This document shows positions 4,842 through 55,050 of a stretch of 64,000 nucleotides of DNA, piece after piece. Under the pieces are notes generated by a model. That model searched no databases. It was not told the DNA's origin and saw only the letters and a program-made list of their open reading frames with translations. Position 1 is the stretch's first letter. Every line of letters starts with the position of its first letter. Location: NCBI GenBank assembly GCA_963718865.1, contig CAVRAE010000003.1, positions 859,518-923,517 on the forward strand, written 5' to 3'. Source of the stretch: an uncultured Gammaproteobacteria bacterium (GTDB taxonomy: Bacteria; Pseudomonadota; Gammaproteobacteria; Steroidobacterales; Steroidobacteraceae). The position numbers and the translations under genes were made by a program.

Positions 4842-5071
4842 CTGCAACCCTCCAACACCGATTCGCACCTGACAGCCCCTAATCATCGCGGCAGTGCGAT
4901 CCGCCGCGCAGCCCGATTCCTGCTGTGAACTATGTCACATGTCAGCGCACGATTAACTTCGTGTAACAAAGGTCAGCAATCCGCAAGTTGCGACGTTGGT
5001 ACCGCTCAGGCAGCCGGAAAATCCGGCTAAATCCCGACCACCGGAACCCGGTCCCTTAAGGAGCAAGTCCC

Positions 5072-5410
5072 ATGTTGAAATCCGTACGCACCGTTCTGAC
5101 CGTCGCCGCTGCGAGCTTCGCATTGGCCGGCCTTGCCACCAACGCCATGGCCGACACCCAGTGGCAGAAGAATCACCCGCGCCGCGAACAGGTGAACAAC
5201 CGCCTGAAGAATCAGAACAAGCGCATTCACAAGGAAGTGAAGGAAGGCGAGCTGAGCAAGGGCCAGGCAGCGAAGCTGCATCACGAGGACCATGCGCTGC
5301 GCAAGGAAGAGCGCACCATGGCGAGCACCGATCACGGTCATCTCACCAAGACCGATCAGCGCGCGCTCAATCAGCAGGAAAACCAGGTCAGCAAGCAGAT
5401 CGGCCGCTAA
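5072..5410 (+). CDS. small secreted basic His/Gln-rich protein (function unknown)
   Basis: AAGGAG ribosome-binding site. Signal peptide ending NAMA. Helical charged body containing LHHEDH, TDHGHLTKTDQ. Confidence 0.65.
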   Translation: MLKSVRTVLTVAAASFALAGLATNAMADTQWQKNHPRREQVNNRLKNQNKRIHKEVKEGELSKGQAAKLHHEDHALRKEERTMASTDHGHLTKTDQRALNQQENQVSKQIGR

Positions 5411-25539: not shown

Positions 25540-25624
25540 TTGGTGCCGACGGTCGGATTCGAACCGACACGCCTTGCGGCGCTAGCCCCTCAAGCTAGTG
25601 TGTCTACCAATTTCACCACGTCGG
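25540..25624 (-). tRNA. tRNA-Leu (anticodon GAG), class II with a long variable arm
   Basis: The reverse complement folds by hand. Acceptor stem GCCGACG/CGTCGGC; anticodon stem CTAGC/GCTAG with loop TTGAGGG; T-arm GTCGG-TTCGAAT-CCGAC; encoded CCA. Confidence 0.9.
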
Positions 25625-25656
25625 CAACATTAAAATCCGCGCAACGAGCTGACGCC

Positions 25657-47001: not shown

Positions 47002-47421
47002 CTAGCTGCGTGCCCGCACTACGAATGCGTCCACCAGCGAGCCGAGGGTCTGGGCAAACAGCGGTTCGAACAATATTCCGGTGAGGGTGCTCTTGAACGC
47101 GAAGCGCATGGCGAGCTCCACCCGGCAACCCGAATCGACCGGTGTCAGCAGCCACTGCCCCTCCAGGGTACGAAACGGGCCGCTGACGAGCTCCATGTTG
47201 ACGGCGCGGTCCGGCTCGAGCTTATTGCGGGTGGTGAACTCCCCCGTGAGGGCCCCCTGCCGCACCCCGAGCGTCGCGACGATTTCGCGCGGCGTGCGCG
47301 ACTGCACCCGTGTGTGTGTGCACCAGGGCAGGAACTGCGGGTAGCTCTCGATGTCATTGATGAGCGCGAAGAGCTTCGCCGGCGGCTGGCTTACGAGCGC
47401 TGAGCGCTTGACCTCTCGCAT
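47002..47421 (-). CDS. ratA: SRPBCC/START-fold ribosome-association toxin RatA (Coq10-like)
   Basis: [29 protein letters not shown]. Conserved ratA-rnfH context next to smpB. Start at ATG 47421. Confidence 0.85.
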
Positions 47422-47448
47422 GGCGCATTGTCCCATTACGCCCCCCGT

Positions 47449-47916
47449 ATGACCAAAAGCAACGACTCGTCCCGACTGATCGCCGAGAACCGCCGGGCGC
47501 GCTTCGACTACTTCATCGAGGAGCGTTACGAAGCGGGCCTGGCGCTTGAGGGTTGGGAAGTCAAGGCCATGCGGGCCGGACGGGCGCAGCTGGCGGAAGC
47601 GTACGTCTACCTGCGCGGCGGGGAGGCATTTCTCATCGGCGCGCACCTGACTCCGCTGCGCACTACTTCCACCCATGTCGTTGCCGACCCGGTGCGAACA
47701 CGCAAGCTGCTGCTGCACTACAGCGAGCTGCAGGGCCTGATCGGCGCGGTGGAGCGTCGCGGCTATACCATCGTGCCGCTGGAGCTGTACTGGAAGAACG
47801 GGCGCGCGAAGCTGCAGGTGGGACTTGCCAAGGGCAAGAAACAACACGACAAGCGCGCCGTGCAGAAGGATCGCGACTGGCAGCGCAGCAAGGCGCGGCT
47901 GCTGCGGCGCGGCTGA
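47449..47916 (+). CDS. smpB: SsrA-binding protein SmpB
   Basis: [32 protein letters not shown]...TRKLLLH..E...L.....[28 protein letters not shown]. Confidence 0.95.
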
Positions 47917-48807: not shown

Positions 48808-49058
48808 TGCAAAATCCCTCAGTCCATATGGAGTTAACGTAACGTGCGCACCTTAGCCGGAGGTCTTGGTCGAGACAATCCGTTGCATAAAAACGACACC
48901 GGCCGCGGCGCGGGCGCGATTGTGCCACAACCCGCTGAACGCGTTCGGGTATGCTGCGGGTGAACCTTGAGGGGGCGACCGGTTTCGACGTGGGTTGCGA
49001 ACCTTCAGGGGCGTACCGAGGCGCAGTGCCCTCGTAAATAATGCTGCAAAACTTAGTT

Positions 49059-49091
49059 GCCAACGACGACAACTACGCTCTAGCTGCCTAA
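49059..49091 (+). other. tmRNA tag reading frame (ANDDNYALAA, TAA stop)
   Basis: GCC AAC GAC GAC AAC TAC GCT CTA GCT GCC TAA, with the typical upstream ...CGTAAATAATGCTGCAAAACTTAGTT context. Confidence 0.9.
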
Positions 49092-49306
49092 CCGCAGTTG
49101 ACCTCTGACCGGCTCGTGCCTGTGCGACCGAATCAGGGGACGCGTTCACAGGATCGCGCTCCGGCGTGCGACAGGCCGGTTGCGTTAAGAGTTACTGTCC
49201 GCTGGCGTTGCGTCTTCCCTGCTCCTCGGGTAGCGCCGCGTGAGAAAAAAAGAGCGAGCTACGTACGTAGATCCTGAAGTCTAGGACTTGCGGACGGGGG
49301 TTCGAT

Positions 49307-49600
49307 CAATGGGTCGCACCAGGCCGCGAGGCCTGGTTTGAAAACGGAGCTCACATCGGTGAAACCTGACGGCGTCCTCTTCGAGGGCGGCATGGCAACG
49401 CCGAGGGGTAGGAAGAGGGCCAACTTCAGGCCTGCCCTGTAGAGACTCATAGACCCGCCGACGGCTCTTGGGCCGCGGGCGGGCACTAGGATCCGCGCTC
49501 GCAGCAACGAGGCGGATAACACGCTCCGCATCCATGCACTCTTTGTGGGTGCGTGGATGAAGGCATAGTCCAGCCCGCGGCGAAAGCCACGGAAATGCTG
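49307..49600 (+). ncRNA. group I intron (IC3-like) inserted in the tmRNA T-loop
   Basis: The 5' exon ends in U. P1 is CGAU/GUCG with a U-G wobble. The last intron nucleotide is G. R-like GUAGAGACUCAUAGACC and S-like AAGGCAUAGUCC elements form P7 with a bulged C. P3 is GGUUU/AGACC. There are GNRA-capped hairpins. No internal ORF. Confidence 0.8.
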
Positions 49601-49620
49601 TCCCCCCGCCTCCACCAACT

Positions 49621-49657
49621 GAGCGGTTCCCGGTGCCAAAACACCGGGAACCGGCTC
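49621..49657 (+). terminator. 15-bp hairpin immediately after the tmRNA 3' end
   Basis: GAGCGGTTCCCGGTG-CCAAAA-CACCGGGAACCGGCTC with one bulge. No U-tract. Confidence 0.5.
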
Positions 49658-52899: not shown

Positions 52900-55050
52900 A
52901 TGACCCTACCCCTGCGTCGTTCCTCTGGCTGGATCACTGCCTGCGTCCTGGCGGCCCTCGCACTGGCGCTGGCGGGCTCGGTGCAGGCCCCTGCCGGCAC
53001 TTCGATCCTGCCCCCCGGGGTCCTCGCCCCGAGCGACGCGCAGCGCGCCACGGCCCGCAAGGTCGGACGGATCCTCGAGGAGGCGCACTACAGCCGTGCC
53101 TCGCTCGACGAAAAGATGTCGCAGGTCGTCTACGCGCGGTACCTGGAGTTCCTCGACGGCCAGAAGAGCTACTTCCTCGCCGGCGACGTGCGCGACTTCA
53201 ATGTCTATCGACTGCAGTTCGGCAACATGATCCGCACCGGCGACATCGACCCGGCGTATCTGATCTTCGCCCGCTTCCAGCAGCGCAACCGCGAACGCAT
53301 GCAGCACGCCATCGCGCTGCTGCAGACTGAGCCGGACTGGACCATCAACGAGTCGTTCGAATTTGACCGCACGCACGCCGACTGGCCGGCGGACCAGGCG
53401 GCCATGGACGACCTGTGGCGCAAACGCGTAAAGAACGACGCGCTGTCGCTGCTCTTGACGGGCAAGACCTGGCCGGAGGCGGCCGAGATCCTGAAGAAGC
53501 GCTATGAGCGCGTGCTCAAGCGCGTCGACCAGGTGAGCTCCGAGGACGTGTTCGAGAATCTGATGAACGCCTATGCGCGGGCCTTCGATCCGCATTCGAG
53601 TTACTTCTCGCCGCGCTCCTCCGAGGAATACCGCATCCAGATGAGTCTCAACTACGACGGCATCGGCGCCTCGCTGCAGGTGGTTGACGACTACGTGACC
53701 ATCATGAACGTGCTGGAAGGCGGCCCGGCCGCCGTCGCCGGCACCCTGAACAACAACGACCGGATCACCGGCGTCGGCCAGGGCCATGACGGGCCCTTCA
53801 CGGACGTGATCGGCTTGCGCCTGGATGACGTCGTGCAGCTGATCCGCGGCAAGGCCGGCACTACGGTGCGTCTGCAGGTGTTGCCCGCCGGCGCAGCCCC
53901 GGGAACCAAGGAGAAGGTGCTGGAGTTCGTGCGCAACAAGGTGACGCTCGAAGCGCAGGCCGCGCACAAGCAGGTGAAGAGCGTCGTGCGCAACGGCCGT
54001 ACGCTGAAGATTGGCGTCATCACGGTGCCGGGCTTCTATGAGGACGTCGCGGCGCAGAGCGCCGGTGACCCGAATTACCGCAGCACCACGCGCGATGTGC
54101 TGAAGCTGGTGCGCGAACTGCGGGCCGAAAACGTCGATGGCCTGGTGCTCGACCTGCGCGACAACGGCGGCGGCTACCTGCCGGAGGCCACCGCGCTCAC
54201 CGGGCTGTTCATCGAGCACGGGCCGGTGGTGCAGCTGCGCGACACCAGTGGCAGAACCGAGGTACTGGACGACCCGGAAAGCGCCCCTGCCTACGACGGG
54301 CCACTGGCAGTGCTGGTGGATCGCCTGAGCGCTTCGGCTTCCGAGATTTTCGCCGGCGCGATCCAGGACTATCACCGCGGCCTGATCCTGGGGCAGACCA
54401 CCTTCGGCAAAGGCACGGTGCAGAACCTGGTGCCGCTTGATCGCTGGTCCAAAGAGCCGGTGAACGGGCAGCTCACCGTGACCATCGGCAAGTTCTACCG
54501 GGTCACGGGCGAGAGCACCCAGGAGAAAGGCGTGGAGCCGGACGTGTCGCTCGCCTCGGTGCTCGACACCAAGGAGGTCGGCGAGAAAGCCCTCGAATCA
54601 GCACTCCCCTGGGACCGCATCGCCGGTGTGCCCTTCAAGGCGAGCATCGGCACCGCCGCCGCGCCTGCGGTGGCGGCGCTGGCCTCGGAAGAGGATGCCC
54701 GCGCGCATCACGATCCGGACTACCGCTGGCTGATGTCGGACATCGCGGCGATCGACTCCGAGCGCGACCAGCACAGCGTGTCGCTGAATCTCAGCGTACG
54801 GCGCGAAGAACGCGCGCGCATGGAAAAAGAACGCCTGGAGCGTGAGAACACCCGCCGGGCGGCAAAGAACGAGCCGCCGTTCAAGAGCATCGAGGAACTG
54901 GACAAGTCCGCCAAGGACAGCAAGGACAAGCCCAAGGACGCGGCCGCTGACGTGCTGCTCGACCAGGCCGCTCAGATCATGGCAGACATGGTGGTTGGCG
55001 CGCGCCCGGCGCCGCAGCAGAAAACCGCGCGCGTGAGTGAGCCGGGCTAA
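52900..55050 (+). CDS. prc: tail-specific (C-terminal processing) protease Prc, S41A family
   Basis: Signal peptide, PDZ region, and the catalytic block LAVLVDRLSASASEIFAGAIQDY..G...G..TFGKGTVQ. Confidence 0.95.
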   Translation: MTLPLRRSSGWITACVLAALALALAGSVQAPAGTSILPPGVLAPSDAQRATARKVGRILEEAHYSRASLDEKMSQVVYARYLEFLDGQKSYFLAGDVRDFNVYRLQFGNMIRTGDIDPAYLIFARFQQRNRERMQHAIALLQTEPDWTINESFEFDRTHADWPADQAAMDDLWRKRVKNDALSLLLTGKTWPEAAEILKKRYERVLKRVDQVSSEDVFENLMNAYARAFDPHSSYFSPRSSEEYRIQMSLNYDGIGASLQVVDDYVTIMNVLEGGPAAVAGTLNNNDRITGVGQGHDGPFTDVIGLRLDDVVQLIRGKAGTTVRLQVLPAGAAPGTKEKVLEFVRNKVTLEAQAAHKQVKSVVRNGRTLKIGVITVPGFYEDVAAQSAGDPNYRSTTRDVLKLVRELRAENVDGLVLDLRDNGGGYLPEATALTGLFIEHGPVVQLRDTSGRTEVLDDPESAPAYDGPLAVLVDRLSASASEIFAGAIQDYHRGLILGQTTFGKGTVQNLVPLDRWSKEPVNGQLTVTIGKFYRVTGESTQEKGVEPDVSLASVLDTKEVGEKALESALPWDRIAGVPFKASIGTAAAPAVAALASEEDARAHHDPDYRWLMSDIAAIDSERDQHSVSLNLSVRREERARMEKERLERENTRRAAKNEPPFKSIEELDKSAKDSKDKPKDAAADVLLDQAAQIMADMVVGARPAPQQKTARVSEPG

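Follow-up and report, generated by a model that had tools for sequence, protein, structure and literature searches.

An IA-type group I intron splits the T-loop of ssrA in a Steroidobacteraceae-like gammaproteobacterium

Genes for transfer-messenger RNA (tmRNA, encoded by ssrA) that are interrupted by an intron form an established class. That trans-translation relies on splicing in this gene form was recognised in 2002, and a large-scale catalogue followed in 2025. This tmRNA database counts 883 unique intron-form sequences in 21 phyla; most are interrupted at position 7 of the T-loop, Pseudomonadota account for 159 instances, and the introns average 293 nt (PMC11915505). To be assigned to its tmRNA_intron class, a sequence must be at least 500 bp long and score 150 bits or more with the class covariance model (PMC11915505). 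The tmRNA intron of Clostridium botulinum is 287 nt long, self-splices and carries the exon mimic CGAU (PMC2729099). Here we describe a split ssrA in a 64-kb stretch of DNA (hereafter, the window; coordinates are positions in the whole window, and all features lie on the + strand unless stated). We are highly confident that it is a functional ssrA of a Steroidobacteraceae-like gammaproteobacterium in the intron form, with a 294-nt IA-type group I intron at position 7 that lacks an open reading frame (ORF).

The locus fits the intron-form class in every feature tested, and we found no difference in kind. Its intron lies between the sixth and seventh T-loop nucleotides (TTCGAT/T), has U at position −1 and G at its end, is 294 nt long (published mean, 293 nt) and, like about 96% of published cases, is without a homing endonuclease gene. 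At 647 bp, including the insert at 49307-49600, the gene is inside the published intron-form length range. The layout of the C. botulinum tmRNA is nearly identical (5′ exon of 338 versus 336 nt, intron of 287 versus 294 nt and a short 3′ exon), and there too CGAU of the 5′ exon takes part in P1; this comparison covers layout and CGAU, and the hosts differ, C. botulinum being a low-GC Firmicute and the window host a high-GC gammaproteobacterium. The T-loop intron in ssrA is real, and it is also a documented, ordinary gene form: an earlier annotation of this DNA (the original prediction) had called tmRNA introns very rare, a view that is outdated given 883 sequences in 21 phyla and 159 instances in Pseudomonadota (PMC11915505). 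Our additions are modest: an intron lineage that is abundant in soil Steroidobacterales and interleaved with intron-free sister species, a clean covariation dataset that includes covariation of P1 with the exon, and an architecture of IA type rather than IC3.

A complete tmRNA appears once the two exons are joined. On the unspliced locus, ARAGORN called no tmRNA, and the Rfam tmRNA model (RF00023) aligned positions 48978-49308 at 148 bits, reaching GGGGGUUCGAU and ending inside the T-loop, with the 3′ strands of the T-stem and acceptor left unaligned. When 49307-49600 was deleted in silico, ARAGORN called a 353-nt tmRNA with the tag ANDDNYALAA. Joining exon 1 to the 17-nt exon 2 (TCCCCCCGCCTCCACCA) rebuilds the loop TTCGATT, a 5-bp T-stem (GGGGG/CCCCC) and a 7-bp acceptor (GGGGGCG/CGCCUCC) that includes the G3-U pair. 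Exon 1 is 84-98% identical by BLAST to ssrA of related Steroidobacteraceae metagenome-assembled genomes (MAGs). The exon and insert boundaries given by the original prediction (48971-49306, 49307-49600 and 49601-49617) are each correct to the base; ARAGORN, after in-silico splicing, agrees with its tag at 49059-49091, and the loop, T-stem and acceptor that it had restored on paper give the same joined 3′ end as the intact sister alleles.

With SmpB as the query, we collected 80 loci from species-representative genomes, which place the window in a Steroidobacteraceae-like gammaproteobacterium (best match, a soil MAG with 95% SmpB identity). A homologous insert of 261-305 nt, alignable by BLAST, occupies the identical ssrA site in 20 of the 80 loci, and ARAGORN called an intact ssrA in 37. 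The intact alleles L014, L016, L017 and L019 read GGACGGGGGTTCGATTCCCCCCGCCTCCACCA, which equals the window exons joined. Both stems that the insert separates covary between the exons: the T-stem is GGGGG/CCCCC in some species and GCGGG/CCCGC in others, and the acceptor is either GGGGGCG/CGCCUCC or GGGGCCG/CGGCUCC. Because both stems covary across the insert, the split ssrA is under purifying selection as one functional RNA and is no pseudogene.

A metagenome scan for the R and S blocks of the intron at the correct spacing returned at least 120 contigs, and in at least 104 metagenome contigs the T-loop intron is followed by a matching 3′ exon. Among the matches listed, each of the 80 copies with a complete 5′ exon became an ARAGORN tmRNA after in-silico splicing. 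Their tags are mostly ANDDNYALAA-like, and among the matches listed one (L150) is clearly foreign. As the split arrangement is shared by 20 related genomes and at least 104 metagenome contigs, it is no product of chance, and the intron lineage was seen solely in ssrA across the genome copies and the metagenome matches listed. Two metagenomic intron-form genes, L093 and L107, end without an encoded terminal CCA (…CCTCCACAAAT and …CCTCCACTTTT, respectively), so that CCA addition after transcription would be needed in those hosts. At another locus, L066, ARAGORN called an unusually long tmRNA (4965-5377, 413 nt, tag from position 150), in which BLAST similarity to the window exon does not start before 5066; probably the 5′ end was miscalled, or else the 5′ region contains an insertion.

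The intron ends in CUG in all 21 genome copies (the window and its 20 relatives); of the 104 metagenome matches listed, 101 end in CUG and 3 in CCG. P1 forms five of five pairs with the U-1/G wobble in each of 125 copies (the 21 genome copies and the 104 metagenome matches listed), and it covaries with the exon by compensatory exon and guide variants. Among the 125 copies, exon CGAU followed by C meets guide GGUCG in 80 copies and guide GGUUG in 7; CGAU followed by U meets GGUCG in 28 and AGUCG in 7; and CAAU followed by U meets GGUUG in 3. The predicted wobble of U49306 with G49313 and the predicted terminal G49600 (omega-G) are thus present in the window and in every copy examined. Eight introns (L034, L045, L047, L059, L116, L118, L140 and L168) carry an extra small hairpin in the P1 loop, for example GCAAGGGAUUGC, and begin with U, not C; the two features mark an intron sub-lineage.

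We wrote a full P1-P9 group I model in window coordinates (Table 1) and counted its pairs on an alignment of the 21 genome copies, in which the core is conserved and the hairpins are variable. Standard pairs fill 94.2% of cells, against 36-45% in a control in which the 3′ partners were slid by 1-3 columns. Changes on both sides occur in 44 of the 82 pairs, and none of 500 shuffles reached the observed value on any measure. At no column conserved to 90% or more does the window copy depart from the consensus base. The R and S elements form P7 with a bulged C, as the original prediction had proposed; both are invariant and align to the consensus of RF00028, the Rfam group I intron model, and the two hairpins that it had described with GNRA loops, L2 (GCGA) and L9 (GAAA), are present.

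Independent of this model, a permissive RF00028 search of nine homologous loci matched the whole intron in L083 (44.7 bits, E = 4e-8), L045 (38.4 bits, E = 3e-6) and L071 (30.4 bits, E = 7e-4), so the window intron is homologous to sequences that the Rfam model recognises. Rfam's alignment of L083 agrees with our model on P1, P2, P3, P4, P5, P8 and P9: its P3 is ACGGGGC/GCCCCG, its R element GUAGAGACU is aligned to the consensus R GUUCAaAGACUA, its S element GAAGGCAUAGUCC is aligned to the consensus S gAAGAUAUAGUCu, and the stretch of P7.1 and P7.2 appears as a 59-nt insertion between P7 and P3′. The pair counts and the L083 alignment both give a P3-P8 and P4-P6 core with the P3/P7 pseudoknot topology. 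The covarying fold and the RF00028 matches of the homologues together support the central claim of the original prediction, an ORF-less group I intron that splits a functional ssrA in its T-loop.

Several points weigh against this interpretation. With permissive filters and hits accepted at E ≤ 10, RF00028 still did not match the window copy; the matches to L083, L045 and L071, although significant, all fall below the curated gathering score of 50 bits. This model is insensitive to bacterial introns, its seed then having been without bacterial sequences, and Williams worked at 18-20 bits. P1, P4, P5 and P7 are invariant or nearly so in the alignment, and the invariance of P4, P5 and P7 means that covariation speaks neither for nor against these helices. 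P9 of the window copy contains one C-A mismatch (49578/49589), and P10 would have about two pairs at most. Splicing in this organism is a prediction from sequence, and the ssrA copy count covers 64 kb, so that a second, uninterrupted copy may exist elsewhere in the genome.

Standard tools miss this gene. Of the Rfam and ARAGORN searches by which the original prediction was to be checked, RF00023 (truncated) and ARAGORN (after splicing only) bore it out, and RF00028 was silent on the window copy. A genome with such a split ssrA would therefore be wrongly reported as being without a complete tmRNA.

Table 1. Features of the split ssrA and its intron, with the neighbouring smpB
Feature	Position	Strand	Description	Basis
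smpB (protein partner of tmRNA)	47449-47916	+	1 kb upstream of ssrA, intact	Pfam PF01668, E = 1.5e-55
ssrA exon 1	48971-49306	+	acceptor 5′ strand, body with pseudoknots, T-stem 5′ strand, loop TTCGAT	RF00023, ARAGORN, BLAST
Tag frame	49059-49091	+	ANDDNYALAA and stop codon	ARAGORN, spliced-RNA positions 89-121
Group I intron	49307-49600	+	294 nt, IA-type, without ORF	alignment of 21 copies, pair counts, RF00028 on homologues
P1	49303-07/49312-16	+	exon CGAU and C49307 with guide GGUCG; U49306-G49313 wobble marks the 5′ splice site	
P2 hairpin	49319-25/49330-36	+	GNRA loop L2 (GCGA)	7/7 pairs compensatory, 99.3% of cells paired
P3	49345-50/49523-28	+	CGGAGC/GCUCCG	100% of cells paired, 9 sequences A-U to G-C
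P4	49356-61/49399-404	+	followed by J4/5 AAA	near-invariant
P5	49365-66/49394-95	+		near-invariant
P5a	within 49365-49395	+		covaries
P6	49406-12/49431-37	+		covaries
P6a	49415-18/49424-27	+		covaries
R element	49439-49450	+	J6/7 and P7 5′ strand, G(A)GACU(C)AU	invariant in 21/21 copies
P7	49442-50/49565-71	+	G(A)GACU(C)AU with AUAGUCC; bulged A49443 and C49448	invariant
P7.1 hairpin	49454-49483	+		4/6 outer pairs compensatory, 99.2% of cells paired
P7.2 hairpin	49491-49517	+		4/6 pairs compensatory, 98.4% of cells paired
P8 hairpin	49530-49558	+	distal alignment poor	8/10 pairs compensatory, 73% of cells paired overall
S element	49559-49571	+	J8/7 and P7 3′ strand, GAAGGCAUAGUCC	invariant
P9 hairpin	49575-49592	+	invariant GAAA loop L9	6/7 pairs compensatory, 97.3% of cells paired
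Terminal G (omega-G)	49600	+	marks the 3′ splice site	all copies end in G
ssrA exon 2	49601-49617	+	last T-loop U, CCCCC, CGCCUCC, then ACCA	covaries with exon 1
GC-rich hairpin	49625-49652	+	directly after the CCA end, without T-run; possibly a terminator or processing signal	read from the sequence

By analogy with the general group I mechanism and with the C. botulinum tmRNA intron, the window intron is very probably self-splicing. The precursor of about 647 nt would fold so that the guide GGUCG (49312-16) pairs with CGAU and C49307 to form P1. A free guanosine held in the P7 pocket would then attack the bond after U49306; the binding pair may be G49444-C49570, the likely counterpart of Tetrahymena G264-C311, beside the bulged A49443. 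G49600 would take the place of the guanosine in the pocket, and the 3′-OH of U49306 would attack after G49600, joining U49306 to U49601. This would rebuild the T-arm and allow the acceptor stem to form with the G3-U alanine identity pair, and the spliced RNA, once its ends were processed and alanine was attached, could bind SmpB and act in trans-translation. Because a functional tmRNA needs the T-arm and acceptor that splicing rebuilds, trans-translation from this gene would depend on splicing.

The intron has IA-type architecture, comprising P1-P9 with P7.1 and P7.2. We assign it to this type and not to IC3 because P3′ lies about 70 nt past P7, with two covarying hairpins between them. P7.1 and P7.2 are helices used for the assignment to subgroup IA (PMC3428280, PMC3984707), and a 'P7.1 region' is mentioned in tmRNA introns (PMC11915505). 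The linker between the two hairpins reads CACUAGG, and the G-U-A typical of IA2 (PMC3428280) is absent. IA introns with P7.1 and P7.2, such as those of phage T4 td, Twort and nrdE/F, share with the window intron the two extra hairpins between the P7 5′ strand and P3′; these lie around the guanosine pocket in the Twort structure (PMC1995217). The phage introns interrupt protein-coding genes, whereas the host of the window intron is an RNA gene, and blastn of the intron against 50,697 phage records gave no match. The C. botulinum tmRNA intron is reportedly of subgroup IA3; the paper on its self-splicing (PMC2729099) names no subgroup.

The original prediction had called the intron IC3-like, that is, kin to the Azoarcus and cyanobacterial transfer RNA (tRNA) introns, with P3 formed directly after P7 by GGUUU/AGACC (49335-39/49451-55). 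There are reasons to consider this. All classical bacterial tRNA introns are IC3, and Williams combined tRNA and tmRNA introns in a single covariance model, which implies that they can be aligned. The IC3 introns of Azoarcus tRNA-Ile and cyanobacterial tRNA-Leu resemble the window intron in being small and ORF-less, in sitting in a loop of a tRNA-like RNA, in following the U-1/terminal-G rule and in having GNRA loops at L2 and L9. The P4-J4/5-P5 and J6/7-P7 blocks may also resemble those of IC3 tRNA introns; a literature search by sequence strings found no printed Azoarcus intron sequence. However, the adjacent P3, although present in the window sequence, is paired in only 62.8% of cells, a value that 149 of 500 shuffles reach, whereas the P3 at 49345-50/49523-28 is paired in all cells with compensatory changes and is the one found by the Rfam alignment. 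The tRNA introns lie in the anticodon loop and are without P7.1 and P7.2; in the window, the roughly 70 nt from P7 to P3′, which Rfam treats as an insertion in L083, consist of these two conserved, covarying hairpins in the IA layout. The evidence thus refutes the P3 pairing and the overall layout of the IC3 assignment, which as a whole we consider very unlikely.

It is harder still to maintain that the locus is a dead ssrA with an inert, non-splicing insertion, the working tmRNA being encoded elsewhere in the genome. The failure of ARAGORN and RF00028 on the unspliced locus would fit such a relic, as would a view of the genome that spans 64 kb. Yet the same split is kept in at least 20 species-level genomes and at least 104 metagenome contigs, the exons covary across the insert, the fold is conserved with 44 compensatory pairs, the window copy keeps the consensus at every column conserved to at least 90%, and smpB is intact nearby. 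A true fossil looks different: in L126 and L143 (described below), an orphan intron lies downstream of an intact ssrA.

We give almost no credence to removal of the insert by host RNases without religation, as for ribosomal RNA intervening sequences and permuted tmRNAs, which would leave a mature tmRNA of two base-paired pieces. Two-piece tmRNAs do occur in other proteobacteria (PMC11915505), and the window has a partial match to RF04321 (41 bits, under its 47-bit cut-off), but that match extends over the shared tRNA-like and tag region only, the gene has the standard, unpermuted order (the acceptor 3′ half is not upstream), and endonucleolytic removal would have no need of the group I hallmarks, namely the U-1/G wobble, the covarying P1 and the terminal G. 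A MITE-like insertion was considered and rejected, as was a genomic island at ssrA: the window has a single 3′ fragment, which the gene needs to be complete, and none of the flanking genes encodes an integrase, so the lack of an integrase and of a duplicated 3′ end argues that no island is integrated there.

In a tree of the tmRNA exons, species with and without the intron alternate even at the level of sister pairs, such as L006 (with) and L017 (without). Within the clade of the window, the intron tree and the host tree broadly agree; elsewhere they conflict. For example, L045 shares 92% exon identity with L046 and L051 but only 70% intron identity, and its intron is closest to that of L034; the L026 intron groups with those of L047 and L059. 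Cases of the opposite kind, with introns more alike than exons, are found too. None of the copies encodes an endonuclease; the conflicts at L045 and L026 indicate lateral replacement of an intron that lacks an endonuclease gene. The patchy distribution apparently reflects repeated precise loss together with occasional lateral replacement.

In L150 (reverse complement, ~715-1352), an intron of the same lineage, its R and S blocks identical, occupies the same site in the T-loop of a tmRNA that has a very different body and the foreign tag ANTFAYATASLN. This suggests a host outside Gammaproteobacteria, and hence spread of the intron across phyla. L126 (reverse complement, ~2004-2745) and L143 (1-480) each have an ssrA that is intact, lacks the intron and has a terminator of its own; a spacer of about 170 nt separates it from an orphan intron. 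L131 belongs to the same lineage as this arrangement and is truncated. The orphan intron has no proper 5′ exon (…GGGGCGAGCAT/TAACA…) and is followed by a 3′ exon and a second terminator. Because L088 is an ordinary intron-bearing allele of the L126 lineage, L126 represents a derived state that arose when a new 3′ end was pasted in. Between L126 and L143 the spacer is conserved; it includes a TTGACA motif and a hairpin that shows compensatory changes (CAAAATTG…CAATTTTG versus CAAATTCGC…GCGAATTTG), and it had no match among the other loci collected. It could be an island remnant, the result of gene conversion or a separately transcribed RNA.

Recombination events commonly target the 3′ end of ssrA. 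The conflict between intron and host trees (L045 and L026), the foreign tag of L150 and the fossils in L126 and L143 led us to consider that in this soil lineage of Gammaproteobacteria the intron, although it has no endonuclease, still moves between ssrA alleles and that its T-loop site interacts with recombination at the ssrA 3′ end. We regard this as improbable. If the intron did block or redirect integration at ssrA, it would have a role at the level of the host and would not be purely selfish.

The genes flanking ssrA are housekeeping genes, in the order recN, a ratA-like SRPBCC gene, smpB, DUF481, ssrA, CN-hydrolase, an oxidoreductase and the tail-specific protease gene prc. A promoter scan upstream of ssrA found no sigma-70-like site, and the hairpin after the CCA end, having no T-run, was not called in a terminator scan. 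The ratA-like ORF (SRPBCC, Polyketide_cyc; 47002-47847, − strand) overlaps smpB on the opposite strand; at 281 amino acids it is probably over-extended, its Pfam match covering only residues 143-275. Proteases of the Prc/Tsp family degrade ssrA-tagged proteins in the periplasm, and 3.3 kb downstream of ssrA is the gene for one (52900-55050, + strand; Peptidase_S41, PDZ and TSP_NTD domains), a proximity that may be coincidental. An uninterrupted tRNA-Leu(GAG) gene (25541-25625, − strand) is the sole other RNA gene that ARAGORN and Rfam identified in the window.

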